Shown here one piece after another: positions 40 to 46,837 of a DNA stretch of 46,837 bases (position 1 is its first letter; each line of letters begins with the position of its first letter). The DNA comes from a phage. The position numbers and the translations under genes are program-made. The notes beneath the pieces were generated by a model. The model saw nothing but the letters and a program-made list of their open reading frames with translations, was not told the DNA's origin and made no database searches. The DNA is taken from the sequence record PZ502447.1. One strand, given 5' to 3'.

Positions 40-717
40 TTATGCCAGTTCAGAAGCTACAGAACTCAACCTACCACGGATAGATACCGCGATGGATACC
101 GTTTCGATTTCGTTAACACCAATGCTTGGGGTGTCGTTGAAAGCGATAGTGCCAGACTGGAGACGCATCTCGCTAGCTCGAGGTACGAACAGACGAATAG
201 CAACAACAGTACCAGCTTCGTCATAGTTACGCAGAATCGGATATACCGGGTTGGTGTATTCGTGCGCAAACGTGTAGGTGTTGGTTACCGCAGACTTATA
301 AGTTGGAATCTGCTGCTCACGATCATCAGATAAACACTGGAAGTTAACGAACTGCTGTTCGCCGCCATCAGTGGATACGTCCTGAACACAAGGAACTTCA
401 AACCAAGTAAGAATCTTAACAACTTCACCAGTTAAGCCAGCTGGGAACTTAGTGGTGTTGGAGGTGTCAATACCTTCAACAGTTACGGTTGAACCAGATA
501 CCTCGGTAACGCGAACTTGCTTATCAGCCAGCAGGGTCGAAGCTGAGCTGGTAAATAGCAGGTAATCACCGCGTGCAATATCAGCAACGCTGGACAAAGT
601 TAAAACAGGAGTAACAGCATTGGAAATTGCAGTTACGTCGATAGCAGCTCCCCTAGTGCCTTCTACGAAGACCTGAGTGCCGTTTGATAAATGAGCAATA
701 ATACACCTCCAAATCAA
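40..717 (-). CDS. major tail protein (lambda V-like, assigned by position)
   Basis: 225 aa ORF immediately upstream (wrapping across the window ends) of the G/GT chaperone pair and tape measure gene; followed by a strong terminator. No diagnostic motif recognised. Confidence 0.5.
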   Translation of the reverse strand: MIWRCIIAHLSNGTQVFVEGTRGAAIDVTAISNAVTPVLTLSSVADIARGDYLLFTSSASTLLADKQVRVTEVSGSTVTVEGIDTSNTTKFPAGLTGEVVKILTWFEVPCVQDVSTDGGEQQFVNFQCLSDDREQQIPTYKSAVTNTYTFAHEYTNPVYPILRNYDEAGTVVAIRLFVPRASEMRLQSGTIAFNDTPSIGVNEIETVSIAVSIRGRLSSVASELA

Positions 718-1214: not shown

Positions 1215-1613
1215 TTAGTCAAGACGAACATAGAAACGAACTGGAATAAACCAGCCAGATTTTGACTTCACGACTGGGTGAACTACTCCGCCCTTATAAA
1301 TGTAGCCTGTGTCAAGCATTGTACCATCAAGCATTGATTCTGCCAATTGATTCGCTAATCTCCTTGCGCCATCAACACCATCACCTGGCGAGAAAAAGAC
1401 AGATACCTGAACCATGCCAACATAGTACTTACACTTACGACTTAAGCTGTAGGTTACGGTATCTGCCTCTGTGTAATCGTATTTCAGCCACATACCACCA
1501 TTATTGGGAGGAGAGAAGGCTACGTTTTCATAGGAAATTGGATACCTGACTGGAAACGTTTTAACCAAATCAGTCACAAACCTCCTTGCTGCTAAGGATA
1601 GCTCATACTGCAT
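1215..1613 (-). CDS. tail terminator / tail completion protein (by position)
   Basis: 132 aa ORF between neck proteins and major tail gene; start overlaps the stop of the upstream gene. Confidence 0.4.
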   Translation of the reverse strand: MQYELSLAARRFVTDLVKTFPVRYPISYENVAFSPPNNGGMWLKYDYTEADTVTYSLSRKCKYYVGMVQVSVFFSPGDGVDGARRLANQLAESMLDGTMLDTGYIYKGGVVHPVVKSKSGWFIPVRFYVRLD

Positions 1614-8300: not shown

Positions 8301-8347
8301 ACTATAAGCCATCCTTGGCGGCGCGTCTTTAGCAAAACGTGCTATTT
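8301..8347 (-). promoter_or_regulatory. conserved promoter module (inverted-repeat motif plus -10-like TATAGT)
   Basis: Minus-strand AATAGCACGTTTTGCTAAAGAC, then about 22 nt, then TTATAGT, then leader ACGAAAACGAGAGG, then ATG of 7919..8272; overlaps the terminase large subunit stop. Confidence 0.5.
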
Positions 8348-9913
8348 GATGCCAGCGAGGCGCATCATCCTCGATTTAGGGTCTTCTGCAATGTTCAGTA
8401 CCAGGTTGACAGCCATTGTCAAACAGTCTATCTGGTCATCGTGAACATGTGAATCATCTGCCGTGAATGCCGCAATCTCCGTTAGCAAGCCATTAAGCCA
8501 AGTAGCAGACTCCGGAAGGATTACGTTACCAGCTTTAATCTGCGGCAATGCACTCATTACGCGAGTCAGCTTATCGTTATCCGGAACGTACGGCTCGATA
8601 GGCGTTCGCATAACCCTTCCGGCTGATTGAATCAGGCCAATACCAGAGGCTTTCTTCTCGATGATGATTTTACGAAGGATGCCATCTATCTGATTGGATG
8701 CCCTAGCCATCTTCTCGAAATCCAATAACTCAGCCTCTAGCTCAGGCGCTTCCCATTTACCACGGCGCTGGTCCAACAGGTAAATTTTACCATCCTTATA
8801 GCCCCAGAGTTGCAATACGCTAAAGTCACTGTATGACTTTGTTGTCATTGCGGTATCAAGTGTCATGAATCTGTAGTCGTATTTAGCTGGCGGTCGCAGG
8901 GTGTCACTAATGCGCTGGAACCAGTCTACGTTAATCAGGTTGCCGCCTAGGGCTATTGGCTGTTGAAGGTATTGACTAAGAAACGTGTATGGGTCGGCGT
9001 CCTTCATTGCCATCAAGTCGTGAACTGATTCCTTTGCTGGGAAGTAGCTGTAATACTTCACGCCGTCACGCTCAATGTATTCGCTTGATAGAACGTCATC
9101 AATGAATTGCTGCTTAATCCAGTCAGGAAGAGTGTCGACATAATCCTCAGTAACGAGTGCTGGAACCTTAACTACGTCAAACTTAATCCCCATACCGCCG
9201 GATTCCATAAAATTGCTGGTATCAAGAACGTGCAACCTCTGCTGAACGGCGATAATTGGTGTTTCATGCCCCTTAACGGAACTTGCTCTACGTGAGCGAA
9301 TCGTGTTCTTTAGAAGCATATTAACAGCCTCCCTCCTTACATTACTAAGCGCATCATCTGGCTTCAGCGGGTCATCAAGCATTATGCATCCACTGTAATC
9401 ATCGGTCATGTAACCACCACGTGAACCAGTCACCTGGCCAGCCATTGCCTTAGATATCGATTCAAACCTCACCTTTCCATCTTCATCTAGAACCTGAATT
9501 TCGTCATCCCTACATGTGCCAAACTTGCAAGGCCATAACTCCTGAAACTCCTTTGACTTAATGAGGTCGCGTACTCTCTTTGAGTTTCGCTTAACCAATG
9601 AGTCAGAGAACGACAAACTAAGGTTTCTAACCTTCTTAATCTTGATCATGCTATATACAGGGAAATGTATGCTAAAGAGTTCGGTTTTGGCTGATCCAGG
9701 AGCTACGTTTATGATGGTATCCTTTCTCTTACCCTCAAGAATCTCATCTATGACACGACAAAGGTATTTAGCATGCCAATTCATTTTGAATCTCTCGCCT
9801 TGCGTTATCTGAAAGAAGCACCGCAAGAACCCTTCGAAACTATGCTCAGCGATTGCCTTTATAGCCATCTTTTCAGCGTGAGTTAGTTCATCCCAGACTA
9901 TTAATTCACTCAT
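8342..9913 (-). CDS. terL: terminase large subunit
   Basis: 523 aa; Walker A-like VAPGSAKT near the N-terminus; ATG start 2 nt after the upstream HNH stop; followed by the portal block. Confidence 0.85.
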   Translation of the reverse strand: MSELIVWDELTHAEKMAIKAIAEHSFEGFLRCFFQITQGERFKMNWHAKYLCRVIDEILEGKRKDTIINVAPGSAKTELFSIHFPVYSMIKIKKVRNLSLSFSDSLVKRNSKRVRDLIKSKEFQELWPCKFGTCRDDEIQVLDEDGKVRFESISKAMAGQVTGSRGGYMTDDYSGCIMLDDPLKPDDALSNVRREAVNMLLKNTIRSRRASSVKGHETPIIAVQQRLHVLDTSNFMESGGMGIKFDVVKVPALVTEDYVDTLPDWIKQQFIDDVLSSEYIERDGVKYYSYFPAKESVHDLMAMKDADPYTFLSQYLQQPIALGGNLINVDWFQRISDTLRPPAKYDYRFMTLDTAMTTKSYSDFSVLQLWGYKDGKIYLLDQRRGKWEAPELEAELLDFEKMARASNQIDGILRKIIIEKKASGIGLIQSAGRVMRTPIEPYVPDNDKLTRVMSALPQIKAGNVILPESATWLNGLLTEIAAFTADDSHVHDDQIDCLTMAVNLVLNIAEDPKSRMMRLAGIK

Positions 9914-9915
9914 TG

Positions 9916-10422
9916 TTACGCTCTCGTATTTGGGTAGCCTTTATTTTCAGAGCCATGATTTTCATGATATCCGTTCAATTTGTCATACTGTGACCTTGCC
10001 AATGCAGCCTCCTCTATAGTGTCCTTGTAGCATATGAAGACTGTTTTACCAAACTCCATAGCCTGAACAAGCCATCTATTCTCTCTTTTGCACCAGCTTA
10101 CACCGTTTATTCCGCTTTTATTTCTTGATGATAGTGATCTGTTATTTGAGTTCTCTTTATTGCTTACTAACCTTAGGTTCTCTATTCTATTGTCACTTCT
10201 ATTTTGGTTTATGTGATCTATGTACATGCCTTTAGGGATTGATCCATTGTGCATCTCCCACACCACCCTGTGACACCTGTATGCTTTTTGTCTATACTTT
10301 AGTATCACATAGCCAAATTTATCAACTCTTCCAGCCACCTCTCCAACCTTTGATACATTTGCTACTTTTACCTTTCTTATTAAAAGCCCGTCTCTATATT
10401 CAAAAATATCATGCCAATTCAT
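9916..10422 (-). CDS. HNH homing endonuclease (AP2-HNH type)
   Basis: 168 aa; HNH core IDHINQNRSDNRIENLR; N-terminus MNWHDIFEYRDG shared with the HNH at 28006; strongly AT-rich; inserted between the terminase subunit genes. Confidence 0.85.
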   Translation of the reverse strand: MNWHDIFEYRDGLLIRKVKVANVSKVGEVAGRVDKFGYVILKYRQKAYRCHRVVWEMHNGSIPKGMYIDHINQNRSDNRIENLRLVSNKENSNNRSLSSRNKSGINGVSWCKRENRWLVQAMEFGKTVFICYKDTIEEAALARSQYDKLNGYHENHGSENKGYPNTRA

Positions 10423-18150: not shown

Positions 18151-19734
18151 ATGTTTGATTTCAACGAAGATAAACTATCTGTTGAGCAGGTTATGGCAAT
18201 CGCTGCCAATGACAACCTACCACCGCTTCGCGTGGCTATTAATGCCAATGGCTATCGACAGTCTCAATCGTTCTGGAAAGCACCTGTCGAGATTGATACA
18301 GGTAATGATAAGTATCCAGTAATCTCACTCGGTAATGATATTGATGTTGTTGGTAAGCTATCGGCTAATATCGCTCGCTCGGTTCAGTTCCCTGAGTCGT
18401 CAGCTTACATGCACTTTCTTGGTTGTGTTTCTGCTGCAATGCTTGGGCGTTTTACTGTCGAGTATCATGGAACCCAACAGCCAACATCTTTGTACGTGGT
18501 AACAAGTCAGCCGCCTTCAACTGGTAAATCAGCCATTAACTCGCTATCAATCGCGCCGATGATTGCTGAGACTGAGCGGTTGAATGAAGTACGTAAACGT
18601 GATCGAAAAAAGATTATGGCTAAACTGTCCGCTCTGGCTAAAGAGATGAAGCAGGAGAAATCACCTTCTGAAATGGCTTCACTTTTTGAGGAGAAGGATG
18701 ATTTAGAGGAGAAGCTCGAGAAGCTATGCGATATAGTATTCCCGGTTTCCGATACTACTCCGGAAGGTCTTGCGCGAATCAACAATCGCCAGGGTAATTT
18801 TGCGGTAATCTCTGATGAGGCTACTAGCGTCAACTCACTGTTAGGCATGACTTACGGTGATGGCTCGAAGAAAACGAACAGCGAGCTCGTGCTGAAAGCA
18901 TGGGATGCAGGTAATGTGTCAATTGCCCGTGCGAACGCAGAAAATAACATGAGCTTTGTGGCTATGGGATGCATCTCCGTAATTGCTCAGGATGAAACAA
19001 TCAATGCCATTATGAATGCTGGTGCGCGTGGTATTGGTGTATCTGAGCGTTTCCTTCTGGTGCGCGAAAAGTCATTCCTTGGCGACCGCGTATTTGTTGA
19101 TGCTAATGGTGATTCAACATACGAGGCTATTGATGGCGGCCTGAAAGCGGACTACTTCCGTCTTGTTCATGAGATTATGAATGAAGTAGAGGTTAAGCTA
19201 ACAGTAAGCGCATCATCAATGCGTTACCTTAACCGAGCACGTCAGGAGATGGAGCCTCATCTTGGTGATGGTGGCAAGTATTCTCACACAATGTTGCGCG
19301 GTGCTCTTGGTAAGTTTGATAAGCAAGCAATCCGCATCGCTTCCGTACTTCACGTTATTCGTAACTGGTCCTCACAAACTGGCTCTAGCCCGCAGAAGTC
19401 CAGAGAGATTGAACTGGAGACAATGCAGGAGGCAGTTATGATTTTCAACGAGCTAAGCAAGACGTATTTGTCATCAGCTAGTGCTGCTGGTCATGCTGGT
19501 GACAATGCCGAGATGAACAAGCTGGTTGATATCCTGATTAAGCAGGGCAAGAATGGTAAAGGTGTTGTTGGTGTTCGCTCGTTGTATGAGGCTGCACGCA
19601 AGGTTAAACCTTTTGAAGCTCAGGCTGGAATTATGACTCGCATTAAGGACCACTTGATTCCTATGCTTGATGAGAAAAACTACACATGCCTGATTGGTGA
19701 TAAAATTTACATTAATCCACGATTGCTGGGGTAA
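18151..19734 (+). CDS. P-loop NTPase, possibly replication-associated
   Basis: 527 aa; Walker A-like PPSTGKSA and Walker B-like FAVISDE; largest gene of the rightward early operon. Exact family not recognised. Confidence 0.45.
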   Translation: MFDFNEDKLSVEQVMAIAANDNLPPLRVAINANGYRQSQSFWKAPVEIDTGNDKYPVISLGNDIDVVGKLSANIARSVQFPESSAYMHFLGCVSAAMLGRFTVEYHGTQQPTSLYVVTSQPPSTGKSAINSLSIAPMIAETERLNEVRKRDRKKIMAKLSALAKEMKQEKSPSEMASLFEEKDDLEEKLEKLCDIVFPVSDTTPEGLARINNRQGNFAVISDEATSVNSLLGMTYGDGSKKTNSELVLKAWDAGNVSIARANAENNMSFVAMGCISVIAQDETINAIMNAGARGIGVSERFLLVREKSFLGDRVFVDANGDSTYEAIDGGLKADYFRLVHEIMNEVEVKLTVSASSMRYLNRARQEMEPHLGDGGKYSHTMLRGALGKFDKQAIRIASVLHVIRNWSSQTGSSPQKSREIELETMQEAVMIFNELSKTYLSSASAAGHAGDNAEMNKLVDILIKQGKNGKGVVGVRSLYEAARKVKPFEAQAGIMTRIKDHLIPMLDEKNYTCLIGDKIYINPRLLG

Positions 19735-36848: not shown

Positions 36849-36855
36849 AAGAAAA

Positions 36856-36871
36856 GGCCCCGAAAGGGGCC
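36856..36871. terminator. bidirectional terminator hairpin between convergent genes
   Basis: GGCCCC-GAAA-GGGGCC; the minus-strand side is followed by UUUUCUUUU (3' of J); the plus side has a weaker T tract. Confidence 0.55.
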
Positions 36872-36878
36872 TAATCAT

Positions 36879-40314: not shown

Positions 40315-40338
40315 ATAAAAAACCCGCACTAGGCGGGT
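40315..40338 (-). terminator. terminator-like hairpin between I and J
   Basis: Minus-strand hairpin CCCGC-loop-GCGGG followed by a U-rich run (plus-strand A-run 40315-40322); likely partial, since I and J are normally co-transcribed. Confidence 0.4.
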
Positions 40339-40344
40339 CTTAAT

Positions 40345-42428: not shown

Positions 42429-42466
42429 ATTCTCTCCAATAAAAAAAGGCCCACATGAGCCTTAGT

Positions 42467-42845: not shown

Positions 42846-45818
42846 TTAGTTGTAACCGCGCAAGAACTGATACGCTCTGCCACCCTGTTGGAATGATTTG
42901 CTGATTTCCTCAGCCACGATAACCTTAACTCCAGATTCTATCGCCTTAGCATCATTTCCGCCACCGATTCCAGAGTTTACGTTAACCGTCACACCACCAA
43001 CACTGACATTAGTACCGCCGACAACCCCACCATTAGCATAACCAGATGGCCCACCAACAGCACCTCCATTTGCATAACCGCGCATCAGCTTGTACAGATT
43101 CTTAACACCAATCCTGCTTGTAGCCTCTTTTGTGAATACAAACTCACCACGGTGAACAGTCCCAGCAGGTTGATATTTCCCGCCATCACCAGTATAACCT
43201 CCGCCAGCAAAACCAAGCGCACTACCAATTGAACCAATAGCGCCGCCAGTACCACCAAAACTACTCAGACTTGACTCAATGGCCTTAACAATTAAGAGTT
43301 GAGTCGCAATCCTGGCAATCTGTTTCAGGATCTCAACGGTAAAACTCCTGAAGTCTGCCGTGCCAGTTGTTACAAGGCTGGTGATCTGCTCGGTAATTCC
43401 GGTAAAGACGGAAGTGGTCAATTCACCAGCGATAGAGAATGCATCTGTCGCGCTCTCTGCCCAATTAGCGAAGGATGATTGCACACCAGCAAGCCAGTTT
43501 TCACGTAGCGCATCCTCTTGAGCATAGAAATTACGCCTGGCTTCTAGTAATGCCTGAAAATCAGTATCATCTACAGAACCACCTTTGTTTACCTGATTGG
43601 ATTGAAGTGCCTGAAGCTCTTTTGCTCTTTGCTTCTCCCTGTCAGATAAATTAGCAGCAAGTGAAAAATTATTTGCTTCATTTGTAATCTGCACAGTCTT
43701 CTTAAGGTTGTCATCAAGTAACTTGTTTGACCTCTCCTGAAGCACAATCTGGTCACCAAGTTCAGCCTTCTGTTTAGCCTGTTCAAGAATGATATTCTTC
43801 TGCGCAAGTAGCTTAGCCTGTGATTTTGTAAGCGTACCATCCGCTTGTCTTTGTTCAAGTATTGCAAACTTCGCTTCTTCCTGGAATAACTGCTTTCTTT
43901 CATTGCTTATTACATCATTTATCGTTCTGTGCTCTTGTAAGACCTTTAACTGAGCCTGAAGTGCAAGAACGCCAGATTCATAAGATAAAGTTAAATCCCT
44001 TTCTTCTTTTACAGCCTTTTTCCTCTCACTCCTTGCTTTCTTTATCGCATCATACTCATCGGCAAGAGCCTTCTTCCTTGCTGCAAACTCCTTATCGGTT
44101 GATGCATTATTGCCGCTAAGGTTGGTGTTATTGTTGTTCTCGACATAACCAAGCTCACCCTTCCTGATTCTCGCATCTCGCTCAGCTATGCTTTTTGCTA
44201 ACTCCTCATTTTGCTTCTTAGCTGCATCAACAATCTTTTGCTGCTCAGCGATTGCTTCATTGCCTAAATCGCCAAGTCCAGGTATTGACTGAAGTGTCTT
44301 GGTTGCTGCTATTGCAAACTCGCCCAATAGGATATCGCCGGAGTTTATTAACGACCTTATCTGCTCAATAGTCCCAGCAACAACGTCAGTTATTAAGTTA
44401 AGCGCCCCAAGCGTCCTTTTGCTTATATCATCCCAAATCTCACTTACAAACTTCCTGAAGCTATTCCATGCGCTCTCAAGAGGGTTAAGGCTTAGTGCTA
44501 CGTCTGCTAGCCTGTTTTCCATAACGTTAGCGAATAGCTCAGTAGCTGCGGTTACAGCCTCTGTTTCTCCAGCCGTCTTCCTGATATTCTCAATGTATTT
44601 CAATTGCCCAGACTGAAGGAAGTTGAACTGCTTATCGAGTGCAATCAGACCTTGAATTGGGTCATTTGTAATCTGATCAAAGTATCCAAGAATAGTTTTC
44701 GAGTCTGTTGATGTTACAGTTGCCCATTGTGCTGTCGCCTTGGTTATCTTATCTATCTGCGTAAGAGTCAGATTACCGTTTGCTACCAGGCTGTTAGCTA
44801 TCTCCTGGATAAGTCCGCGCGTGGCTAGTGTTGAACTCTCAATTCCATCAACAACCTGATTTATCTGCGCTGTCGACGTGATAGTTGAGTTGCCAACCAA
44901 TGTTATCGTTGATGCTAGTCCGCGAGTGTTCTTGTCAGCCTGATAAGCAGCAACACCAAGAGCGCCGAGGGCCAAGCCCAAAGTCCCAACAACTGCCGTT
45001 AATGGGTTAATGGCTGCCAGTGCGAACCTTGCGGTGTTAGCAATACCACCAAAGCTATCCTTAATCTGCCCACCCTGCTGAATTGCAATGAGCCAGATTG
45101 GGATGCCGCCAGCAAGAGATGTTCCGATATCTGTAATCTGAGCTGGTAGCTGTCGTATTGCTTGCTTGTACTGACCGGCGCTTAAACCTGACTTAACAAA
45201 AGCGGAGCTTTGCTTCTGTAACTGAACAGCAGATGCCTCGGCGGCCTTGCCAATCCTGTCGATAATCGGTGCCGCTTGGTCACTAACTCCGAGTTGAGCA
45301 GCCTTAAGTTGAAGTAGTTCAGTCCTTGTAAGGCTTGCTGCATTCGCCTCGTTCTCAAGAGATTGAATGAACTTTTGCGCGGCTGCTGTTGCCTTTTCTT
45401 TATCTATTGATGCCTGTAGTGCAGCTCGCCCTTCCTCGCTAAGAGCTGCTTTAGACCTGTTTAGCTTATTTATTTGAGTTTCAATAACAGAGCCAAGCCG
45501 GAAGAACTCATCATCAGGAACTATTCCAGATTCAAACGCCTTGTCTAATTCAGTTGCTGCTTTCTGAAGCTTCTGGAATTTAGCGGCAGTTGGGTCTATG
45601 ACTTGTTGAAGTGATGCGAAAGATTTGCGCTGCTCCTCAAGCTGCCTTGCGGTGTCCCTTGCTTGAGTCTTGGCTACAAGTTCGGCGTTGACGAAGCTAT
45701 TAATGCCTGTTGCAGCTTGCTCGTTTGCTTGCCTGAATTTCTGTAAGGATTGCGTACCCTTATCGACCTGAGCTACGTCGACGGCTAGCGTGATACCAGC
45801 AATTTCGTTAGTTGCCAT
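42846..45818 (-). CDS. tail tape measure protein
   Basis: 990 aa, largely alpha-helical/coiled-coil composition (Ala/Gln/Leu/Lys/Glu-rich) with a Gly-rich C-terminal region; preceded by the G/GT chaperone pair. Confidence 0.85.
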   Translation of the reverse strand: MATNEIAGITLAVDVAQVDKGTQSLQKFRQANEQAATGINSFVNAELVAKTQARDTARQLEEQRKSFASLQQVIDPTAAKFQKLQKAATELDKAFESGIVPDDEFFRLGSVIETQINKLNRSKAALSEEGRAALQASIDKEKATAAAQKFIQSLENEANAASLTRTELLQLKAAQLGVSDQAAPIIDRIGKAAEASAVQLQKQSSAFVKSGLSAGQYKQAIRQLPAQITDIGTSLAGGIPIWLIAIQQGGQIKDSFGGIANTARFALAAINPLTAVVGTLGLALGALGVAAYQADKNTRGLASTITLVGNSTITSTAQINQVVDGIESSTLATRGLIQEIANSLVANGNLTLTQIDKITKATAQWATVTSTDSKTILGYFDQITNDPIQGLIALDKQFNFLQSGQLKYIENIRKTAGETEAVTAATELFANVMENRLADVALSLNPLESAWNSFRKFVSEIWDDISKRTLGALNLITDVVAGTIEQIRSLINSGDILLGEFAIAATKTLQSIPGLGDLGNEAIAEQQKIVDAAKKQNEELAKSIAERDARIRKGELGYVENNNNTNLSGNNASTDKEFAARKKALADEYDAIKKARSERKKAVKEERDLTLSYESGVLALQAQLKVLQEHRTINDVISNERKQLFQEEAKFAILEQRQADGTLTKSQAKLLAQKNIILEQAKQKAELGDQIVLQERSNKLLDDNLKKTVQITNEANNFSLAANLSDREKQRAKELQALQSNQVNKGGSVDDTDFQALLEARRNFYAQEDALRENWLAGVQSSFANWAESATDAFSIAGELTTSVFTGITEQITSLVTTGTADFRSFTVEILKQIARIATQLLIVKAIESSLSSFGGTGGAIGSIGSALGFAGGGYTGDGGKYQPAGTVHRGEFVFTKEATSRIGVKNLYKLMRGYANGGAVGGPSGYANGGVVGGTNVSVGGVTVNVNSGIGGGNDAKAIESGVKVIVAEEISKSFQQGGRAYQFLRGYN

Positions 45819-45832
45819 GTTGTCTCCATAAT

Positions 45833-45856
45833 AAAAAAGCCACCCCGAAGGATGGC
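45833..45856 (-). terminator. terminator-like hairpin upstream of tape measure start
   Basis: Minus-strand GCCAUCC-UUCG-GGGUGGC (one G-U) followed by a U6 run; overlaps the GT stop codon. Confidence 0.45.
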
Positions 45857-46107
45857 TATTTCTTGGCGTTCATCATATCTAAGGCTTTAGCCTCAAGTAT
45901 TCTGATGTCGTTAAGTACCATTTCGTCATCATCTATTTTATAGACTTTGAACAAGAATGGAAGGCAATTATAATCAAGGCCTGTGGCACCGCAAGCCCCT
46001 ACTCGCCATTGAGTTGACATGGCACAGTACACATCCCAGCTTTGCATCATTGTTTCATCGAAGTATAACTCTTCAGGCTCATCACCTTCATAATCGGAAC
46101 GTTTCAT
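45856..46107 (-). CDS. tail assembly chaperone, T segment (expressed as G-T fusion by -1 frameshift)
   Basis: 83 aa ORF in the -1 frame relative to G; the frame entered after slippage at 46173-46179 runs without a stop into this ORF. Confidence 0.65.
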   Translation of the reverse strand: MKRSDYEGDEPEELYFDETMMQSWDVYCAMSTQWRVGACGATGLDYNCLPFLFKVYKIDDDEMVLNDIRILEAKALDMMNAKK

Positions 46108-46169
46108 TCCGATAGCTTCGAGTTCAGCATCCGTTGGCGGTGACTGGTATTGTAAGTATACTGCGCGTT

Positions 46170-46484
46170 TTAGTTTTTTACTCGCTGACCTGCTAGCGCT
46201 TTCATGTAGCTATCCATCAGTGATGGAACGGCACCAGGGAAAAGGTTGGCAAACTCATCTACGTTCTCATCGGTAAATGGTTCTTCTAAATCCCAGTCAG
46301 AGCAGATTTCGTTAATCAATTCTTTAGTGCTGAAGTTTTCACGATTAAGAATCTCCTGAAGTTCAGATGATTTCTTGTGCTTAACTGTTAGTACCACCTC
46401 TGCATCTTCACCATTCGCTAACTGAAACTTAACCGGAAGTTTAAAGTCAGGCAGCGCCTTAAGTGAAAGTTTAAATTTTGCCAT
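46170..46484 (-). CDS. tail assembly chaperone (lambda G-like)
   Basis: 104 aa acidic protein immediately upstream of the tape measure region; ends ...GQRVKN with slippery heptamer A_AAA_AAC spanning the last two codons. Confidence 0.7.
   Translation of the reverse strand: MAKFKLSLKALPDFKLPVKFQLANGEDAEVVLTVKHKKSSELQEILNRENFSTKELINEICSDWDLEEPFTDENVDEFANLFPGAVPSLMDSYMKALAGQRVKN
46173..46179 (-). other. programmed -1 ribosomal frameshift slippery site (A_AAA_AAC)
   Basis: Heptamer AAAAAAC in X_XXY_YYZ register at codons K-N just before the G stop; the -1 frame continues ...KKLKRAVYLQYQSPPTDAELEAIG and merges with ORF 45856..46107. Confidence 0.7.
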
Positions 46485-46519
46485 CTCGTTATCTCCTTTG
46501 TTTGTGTTGAATGATTATA

Positions 46520-46768
46520 TTACTTTGATTCGTTTTTTACAATGTTGTGAGCAACTTCGGTGCACACTTCACGACCATAGTGCAGAATCTGGTTTGTCTT
46601 ATCGCCAGCTACTTTTTCACAATGCGAGTATGCACTATTAAATTCATGTTCATACTTTATTGCATCAGAGTTTGCGGTTTCGCCACCAGTTGGGTTAACA
46701 ATCTGAATTGCCAGGTAGAAAGCACCAAGAGCAGCAGCAAGTTTGATGATGTTTTTAACGTTGTTCAT
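46520..46768 (-). CDS. hypothetical small membrane/secreted protein
   Basis: 82 aa with N-terminal hydrophobic helix IIKLAAALGAFYLAIQIV; has its own promoter module and sits between the major tail and chaperone genes. Confidence 0.5.
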   Translation of the reverse strand: MNNVKNIIKLAAALGAFYLAIQIVNPTGGETANSDAIKYEHEFNSAYSHCEKVAGDKTNQILHYGREVCTEVAHNIVKNESK

Positions 46769-46783
46769 TTCACTAATATCTCA

Positions 46784-46837
46784 TTTCGTTTCGATGAATG
46801 AACTATACAGCAATCCGCGATTTGGTCTTTAACAAAA
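46784..46837 (-). promoter_or_regulatory. conserved promoter module spanning the window junction
   Basis: Leader CATCGAAACGAAATGAGA at 46784-46800 and TATAGT at 46801-46807; the upstream motif GTCTTTAACAAAAAGTGCTATCAAT is split between 46825-46837 and 1-12. Confidence 0.5.

Follow-up and report, generated by a model that had tools for sequence, protein, structure and literature searches.

A tail assembly chaperone gene pair with a predicted programmed -1 ribosomal frameshift and a terminator-like hairpin in a T1-like phage

Introduction

The phage genome recorded as PZ502447.1 carries two small, overlapping open reading frames (ORFs), which we call G and T, between the genes for its tail tube protein and its tape measure protein. 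The question raised by this locus is whether T is a gene in its own right or the second half of a longer protein, GT, that is made when some ribosomes slip back by one base at the end of G. Throughout, the window denotes the whole stretch of DNA analysed, 46,837 nucleotides (nt) in length. An earlier reading of the sequence alone, made without database searches, had proposed ribosomal slippage at an A_AAA_AAC heptamer and had added that a hairpin at the end of T may tune expression of the tape measure gene. Our analysis indicates, at a probability of roughly 90%, that the locus is the overlapping tail assembly chaperone gene pair of a T1-like siphophage (Drexlerviridae) with a programmed -1 ribosomal slip. 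The frameshift site and the terminator-like element are real, conserved and ordinary, and both were previously known for Drexlerviridae or T1-like phages.

Results

G ends in a slippery heptamer that opens into the T frame

G begins with the ATG at 46484, 8 nt after an AGGAG ribosome-binding site, and its 3' end reads CAG CGA GTA AAA AAC TAA. Essentially as the sequence-only reading had stated, the last base of GTA together with the final two sense codons, AAA AAC, forms a slippery heptamer (coordinates of all features are collected in Table 1). Reading in the -1 frame from 46173 gives CTA AAA CGC GCA GTA and meets its first stop codon only at 45858..45856 (TAG); the ATG at 46107 is in phase, so that the proposed open path from the heptamer into the shorter ORF at 45856-46107 does exist; the remaining coordinates and sequence statements of that reading also proved correct. 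In the other direction, a TAG at 46212..46210 blocks the -1 frame, which is thus open only from 46209 and overlaps G by 40 nt. A shift into T must therefore fall within the last 13 codons of G, and A_AAA_AAC is the sole in-phase X_XXY_YYZ heptamer among these codons.

AAAAAAC is not enriched in the window (10 observed versus 13.6 expected), and in-phase heptamers occur 47 times in 16,617 codon positions, which corresponds to 0.037 expected per 13-codon stretch. This heptamer is the only one of the 47 that opens into a long extension (103 codons) lacking a start of its own. Its significance rests chiefly on conservation across relatives.

G and T belong to known families, and their fusion matches a PHROG profile end to end

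Profile searches assigned both halves to Pfam families. G matches PF08748, Phage_TAC_4 (E = 1.2e-32; 113.2 bits versus a cut-off of 21.1), with residues 1-104 aligned to profile positions 1-124 of 124 and thus to the full domain. The T segment matches PF08809, DUF1799 (E = 1.7e-14; 54.2 bits versus a cut-off of 26), over profile positions 2-80 of 80. When the two were joined at the heptamer, residues 1-208 of the resulting sequence matched positions 1-211 of 213 of phrog_17368 (E = 1.5e-87), an end-to-end match indicating that full-length GT-type products are already present in phage protein collections.

An alignment of reconstructed fusions showed that the 22 residues encoded between the shift site and ATG 46107 are conserved as LKRAVYL..PPTD..LE..G, in which L105 and G126 are invariant. 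Aligning the fusion together with matches to either half misaligned the halves, and this approach was dropped; AlphaFold models of the two halves were instead built separately, from separate half alignments. The G model has a predicted local distance difference test score (pLDDT) of 89 and the T model one of 92.5, with the first 22 residues of T modelled as helical at a pLDDT of 85-91. A search of PDB sequences with the family profile returned chance-level matches only.

A word-indexed protein search with the fusion found no match, and an exhaustive HMMER search of 1.84 billion cluster representatives was used instead, which yielded 528 relatives. Among the best 150 of the 528, all but one match either the G half only (residues 1-104, lengths of about 103-108) or the T half only. 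The exception, P0018 (206 amino acids), is the sole G-T fusion in a single ORF among these 150, and it has no segment equivalent to ALAGQRVKN, the sequence that surrounds the shift site. Either the two halves are naturally fused in frame in this protein, or the gene was called across a sequencing error.

The frame relation and the heptamer are conserved across divergent phages

We then turned to the nucleotide sequences of related loci. A tblastn search with the fusion matched 1131 phage records, and in 912 of these two separate matches, in different reading frames, together covered at least 80% of the query. We compared 15 annotated loci and 80 metagenomic viral loci; with the window's own copy included, 93 loci were analysable. 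T lies in the -1 frame relative to G in all 93. The first ORF ends in A_AAA_AAC TAA in 46 loci, in A_AAA_AAC TGA in 21 and in G_GGA_AAC TGA in two; it ends in GCA AAA GTY/GCC TAA in 21 loci of the Klebsiella Webervirus clade and in GCA AAG GTC TAA in two Rogunavirus loci. A heptamer with an adjoining stop codon is thus found in 69 of the 93 loci (A_AAA_AAC in 67, G_GGA_AAC in two).

The pattern of synonymous change within the heptamer-bearing loci points to selection on the RNA. The codon before the AAA varies (GTA, GCA, GAA, CAA, ACA) and always ends in A. The lysine of the heptamer is always encoded by AAA and the asparagine always by AAC, while the neighbouring glutamine and arginine codons vary freely; across the phage, AAA makes up only 43% of lysine codons and AAC 51% of asparagine codons. 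Since AAT would keep asparagine in one frame and leucine (TTA/TTG) in the other, the fixed C argues for selection on an RNA signal.

Some records are unusual. In Shigella phage 2019SD1, G runs on and T lies in the +1 frame, so that the G/T frame relation is broken. The 88.6-kb record of Escherichia phage P-GXEC-L2P5, about twice the usual genome length, contains a duplication of the end of G. Both oddities appear to stem from errors of sequencing or assembly. A Drexlerviridae-type G/T pair about 60% identical to that of this coliphage is also found in 21 records that bear the name 'Campylobacter phage' (for example A14b and A113); one would not expect it in phages of that host, and these records may derive from misassigned phages or from contamination.

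Translation of an independent T and transcriptional slippage are improbable

T could in principle be an independent gene, translated from the ATG at 46107 into the 83-amino-acid protein annotated in phage ES, with the heptamer present by chance. An ATG-started ORF of this length does exist, many database records list G and T as two genes, and gene callers find ORFs for the T half. However, a leucine or phenylalanine codon replaces this ATG in most relatives, and the starts annotated for T vary widely in position, lying anywhere from 9 to about 160 nt beyond the G stop codon. The predicted pairing of the sequence upstream of the ATG with the anti-Shine-Dalgarno (anti-SD) sequence is weak, at -2.6 kcal/mol versus -7.1 kcal/mol for G and -6.4 kcal/mol for the tape measure gene. 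Moreover, the 22 codons before the ATG are conserved at the protein level and modelled as structured, and both the heptamer and its synonymous positions are conserved. Taken together, these observations make an independent T very unlikely. It would be just as surprising if the frame were changed by RNA polymerase slipping on the A run and not by the ribosome. The site holds six A residues in a row, a run shorter than those that give efficient polymerase slippage in E. coli, and the -1 frame would require the deletion of one base or the insertion of two. Distant relatives carry G_GGA_AAC, in which no homopolymer exceeds three residues, and the Webervirus sites contain only A4. Although bacteria and insertion sequence elements do provide examples of transcriptional slippage on A/T runs (PMC5009743), the retention of a codon-phased heptamer where there is no A run points to the ribosome rather than to the polymerase.

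Classical -1 frameshifting is the best-supported mechanism

The evidence fits best with classical programmed -1 frameshifting by the ribosome, like that of lambda G/GT. Most ribosomes would translate G (46484..46173), halt at the TAA and release the 104-amino-acid Phage_TAC_4 chaperone. A minority would slip back one base on A_AAA_AAC and read CUA AAA CGC and onward to the TAG, and we infer that this yields a 209-amino-acid GT protein with a C-terminal DUF1799 domain. By analogy with lambda, G and the G part of GT would coat the tape measure protein, the T domain would recruit the tube protein, and neither G nor GT would remain in the virion. A_AAA_AAC is much less shift-prone than A_AAA_AAG in E. 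coli (PMC5009743), and weak shifting suits a low-level shift. Given this weak heptamer and the lack of a convincing hairpin or Shine-Dalgarno-like stimulator, the slip efficiency is probably a few per cent, and the whole signal would consist of the heptamer, perhaps with the adjoining stop codon.

Four observations weigh against this interpretation. The 70-nt RNA that starts with the heptamer (46179..46110) folds at -7.9 kcal/mol, no more stably than shuffled sequences (z = -0.13), and the window thus shows no stable hairpin or pseudoknot at the 3' spacing of 5-9 nt that is typical of structure-stimulated signals of the dnaX or insertion sequence type. Nor is there an upstream Shine-Dalgarno-like stimulator, as the predicted anti-SD pairing there (-4.2 kcal/mol) is within background. 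Our search of the literature on this phage and on T1 found no protein-level evidence for the fusion, nor any data on its ratio to G or on its requirement in tail assembly. Lastly, the Webervirus and Rogunavirus loci lack the full heptamer, of which just a quadruplet (A_AAA_G or A_AAG_G) is left, separated from the stop by one codon, so that the heptamer is not indispensable for the family; these relatives do keep the -1 T frame and its protein sequence.

A hairpin downstream of the heptamer is present or absent by lineage. In T1 (19193..19223), a hairpin GGGCGGUUU...AAACCGCCC of about -17.1 kcal/mol (z = -3.2) lies 7 nt 3' of the heptamer, and hairpins of this type, formed by the RAV and KPP codons, occur 6-7 nt downstream in many Tunavirinae and Tempevirinae loci. 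Synonymous changes account for their absence from the window and from the ES, Guelphvirus-type and Rogunavirus loci; in the window these changes are CGC GCA GTA versus CGG GCG GTT. Covariation across 30 distinct sequences was not convincing, with 70.8% of cells paired versus 68.2% after shuffling and two pairs showing double changes. No RNA family in Rfam matched the region 45500..46837.

A different form of ribosomal slippage deserves more attention than an independent T or a slipping polymerase, although we consider it the less likely course here. At a 'shifty stop', a phenomenon described by Weiss et al. 1987 (cited in PMC5009743), the slip would occur after AAC has been decoded and while UAA occupies the A site, with the transfer RNA (tRNA) in the P site, or those in the E and P sites, moving back; the protein product would be identical to that of tandem slippage, in which the tRNAs in the A and P sites move. 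The 0-frame stop adjoins the slippery motif in each of the 69 loci that have a heptamer, whereas five sense codons intervene in lambda. The window also offers no downstream hairpin to act as a pausing element, and in E. coli A_AAA_AAC supports tandem slippage poorly (PMC5009743). However, this adjacency may be frozen by double coding: the stop supplies an invariant leucine codon (CUA/CUG) in the -1 frame, and its conservation alone is hence no proof of a mechanistic role. In Webervirus and Rogunavirus, moreover, one sense codon separates the quadruplet (A_AAA or A_AAG) from the stop. The combination of heptamer and abutting stop, fixed in all 69 of these loci, may itself stimulate the slip in lineages that, like this one, have no downstream hairpin.

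A conserved terminator-like hairpin begins within the GT stop codon

The sequence-only reading had also placed a UUCG hairpin with a U-run over the GT stop codon, just upstream of the tape measure gene, and this description is borne out: the stem begins inside the TAG, and the tape measure start follows at 45818. The hairpin, AGCCAUCC-UUCG-GGGUGGCU at 45857..45838, has eight pairs, including five G-C and one G-U, and folds at -15.5 kcal/mol (z = -3.0 versus shuffled sequences); our scan ranked it among the best terminator-like sites. It shows the features of an intrinsic terminator, with a G+C-rich stem followed by a U-run on the transcribed strand, and its structure is kept while its sequence changes. 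A hairpin with a T-run occupies the homologous place in 64 of the 93 loci, namely those of Drexlerviridae type with the exception of one defective record. At least six different stems occur there, including AAGCGCC/GGCGCTT, AACCCGC/GCGGGTT, AACCTCC/GGAGGTT, AAGCCGCC/GGCGGTTT, GAGCGCC/GGCGCTC and the window's own. The loops are mostly UACG or UUCG, and the stem starts within the stop codon in 50 of the 64 loci. More distant relatives have no such hairpin, and many have their tape measure ATG overlapping the T stop or right after it. The element is annotated as a rho-independent terminator in T1 (19508-19527, one of many), Sip and Smiley.

It is reasonable to infer that the terminator tunes tape measure expression, as had been suggested: it probably ends part of the tube-G-T transcripts and would thereby lower expression of the tape measure and distal tail genes in comparison with the tube and chaperone genes. 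T1-like phages carry terminators after many late genes, so that the element is not special to the junction between GT and the tape measure gene. In the window, hairpins with T-runs follow the J-, I- and M-like genes as well, where they start 3-6 nt after the stop codon and match the positions of annotated T1 terminators.

Since only shifted ribosomes reach the GT stop, where the stem begins, the frameshift and the terminator could be coupled. A ribosome in the T frame that trails the polymerase would cover the 5' arm of the hairpin, suppress termination and so allow the tape measure gene to be transcribed, while termination could proceed unhindered if the ribosome had halted 314 nt upstream, at the G stop. 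In this way, transcription of the tape measure gene would depend on the rate of GT frameshifting. We regard such a device as improbable; as the other terminators lie 3-6 nt from stop codons, the close spacing may only reflect a compact genome.

Genome context and neighbouring features

The window represents the genome of a T1-like phage (Drexlerviridae) in circularly permuted form. Its DNA here is 94.5% identical to that of Escherichia phage ES, a member of the Braunvirinae within the Drexlerviridae, and 90-96% identical to that of a few further coliphages. When the circular permutation is taken into account, both chaperone ORFs lie between the tube gene and the tape measure gene, and the gene order is tube, G, T, tape measure and then homologues of lambda M, L, K, I and J, matching that of ES. 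The tape measure protein was identified by Pfam TMP_2 (E = 1e-47), Tape_meas_lam_C (E = 1.8e-19) and phrog_24 (E = 1e-241).

Table 1. Features of the tail gene region discussed in the text, by position in the window.
Feature	Position	Strand	Remarks
G-like tail assembly chaperone ORF	46170..46484	-	104 codons plus TAA (46172..46170)
Slippery heptamer A_AAA_AAC	46173..46179	-	G 0 frame, X_XXY_YYZ register; TAA directly after
T segment, -1 frame	45856..46173	-	105 codons plus TAG; first 22 codons before ATG 46107
Predicted GT fusion coding sequence	complement(join(45856..46173,46173..46484))	-	104 + 105 = 209 amino acids
Intrinsic-terminator-like element	45828..45857	-	stem AGCCATCC/GGGTGGCT, UUCG loop, TTTTTATTAT tail
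Tape measure protein gene, 990 amino acids	42846..45818	-	GGAG ribosome-binding site 5 nt before ATG
Tail tube (major tail) protein gene	40..717	-	Pfam PF08813 Phage_tail_3, E = 2.6e-67
Terminator-like hairpins with T-runs	36855..36872, 40319..40341, 42446..42463	-	after J-, I- and M-like genes
82-amino-acid ORF between tube gene and G	46520..46768	-	phrog_22925
Promoter-like site TTGTAA-17 nt-TATAAT	46514..46542	-	10 of 12 consensus matches
HNH_3 endonuclease gene, 169 amino acids	722..1231	-	between tail terminator gene (1613..1215) and tube gene (717..40)

The small ORF that separates the tube gene from G encodes an N-terminal hydrophobic helix, has a weak ribosome-binding site and found no match in Pfam. 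Its place is taken in T1, Sip and vojen by a terminator and a short spacer only. Phage ES carries the ORF under the label 'exonuclease', which looks wrong, and ECH1 has a similar ORF. It may represent an accessory gene, inserted into the tail operon, for a small membrane or secreted protein. The promoter-like site lies inside the end of this ORF and precedes the ribosome-binding site of G by about 25 nt; it is no more than a match to the consensus, and such sites are as numerous in the region as chance predicts. On the other side of the tube gene, the HNH_3 gene probably encodes a homing endonuclease within the structural operon.

Elsewhere in the window, an in-phase C_CCA_AAT (9928..9934, - strand) lies three codons before the stop of a 168-amino-acid ORF (10422..9916), and the -1 frame at this site is the frame of the next ORF (9913..8342, 523 amino acids). 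We set it aside as a shift site, most likely a coincidence, because the 523-amino-acid ORF can start from an ATG of its own, which follows the upstream stop by 2 nt. Their position and size suggest that the two ORFs are probably the small and large terminase genes.

Discussion

The practical value of these results lies in annotation, in that the locus should be recorded as one chaperone gene with a frameshift-extended second product. The nearest records (ES, TR2 and Rao1) have no annotated fusion; these and others list G and T as two unrelated small genes, under labels such as 'hypothetical protein', 'minor tail protein' or 'tail length tape measure protein'. For recoding biology, the locus provides a weak shifter, A_AAA_AAC, that abuts a stop codon and has been kept across very divergent phages, with a downstream hairpin present or absent by lineage. 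Two clades have replaced the heptamer by a bare A_AAA_G or A_AAG_G, and together these phages could provide a natural series for asking what sets the G:GT ratio. Current understanding is left unchanged by this locus; only the coupling to the terminator and a role for the abutting stop would add something new, if true.

Comparison with known systems

The closest known counterparts are the T1 gene pair ST40/ST39 and its homologues in Drexlerviridae. The T1 pair shares the protein families (45-56% identity), the gene order, A_AAA_AAC followed by TAA, a second frame at -1 and a rho-independent terminator between the GT stop and the tape measure start. Unlike T1, the window, ES and the Guelphvirus-type phages have no hairpin 6-7 nt 3' of the heptamer, and the window and its nearest relatives carry the extra 82-amino-acid ORF between the tube gene and G. 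A conserved tape measure chaperone frameshift and abundant rho-independent terminators have been reported for T1-like phages (PMC4319613, PMC6763657). The frameshift has been reported or annotated for Citrobacter phage Stevie and for Klebsiella phages Skenny and Smiley (PMC4319613, PMC6763657; Smiley record); the Skenny genome note describes it as analogous to lambda G and GT (PMC6763657), and the Smiley record contains a homologous joined coding sequence labelled 'frameshift product'.

With regard to lambda itself, the proposal of a G-T fusion as in that phage holds for the mechanism and for the position of the genes, but no relationship in sequence is detectable. In both phages two overlapping ORFs lie between the major tail and tape measure genes, the second ORF is in the -1 frame and has no start of its own, an X_XXY_YYZ heptamer is found near the end of the first, and the products are presumed to be a chaperone (G) and a chaperone-tube adaptor (GT) (PMC5009743). 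The families differ, however, being PF08748 and PF08809 here versus PF06894 (Phage_TAC_2) for lambda G and PF06223 (Phage_tail_T) for lambda T. The proteins of this phage have no Pfam match to PF06894 or PF06223, to which lambda's own G and T do match, and hhalign probabilities were 0.1% and 0.6%. Lambda's heptamer, G_GGA_AAG, lies five codons before the stop whereas A_AAA_AAC abuts it, and lambda's tape measure gene H overlaps the end of T without a terminator, in contrast to the terminator and 37-nt spacer found here. The programmed -1 frameshift of lambda G/GT is the subject of reports by Levin, Hendrix and Casjens (1993) and by Xu, Hendrix and Duda (2004, 2013 and 2014). There, a G:GT ratio of about 30:1 matters for tail assembly, with G binding the tape measure protein and the T domain binding the tube protein (PMC5009743).

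Beyond phage tails, the heptamer invites comparison with E. coli dnaX, in which an A-rich lysine-codon heptamer on E. coli ribosomes likewise gives a second product from one messenger RNA. In the dnaX signal, A_AAA_AAG is flanked by a Shine-Dalgarno-like element on its 5' side and a hairpin on its 3' side. The heptamer described here instead has AAC (Asn) as its last codon, which is much less prone to shift in E. coli (PMC5009743), and the window has neither a convincing downstream hairpin nor a distinctive upstream Shine-Dalgarno-like element. In bacterial defence, a recent study of Avs immune sensors notes that Avs17 recognises the N-terminal chaperone core that is common to the long and short frameshift isoforms (PMC13581612).

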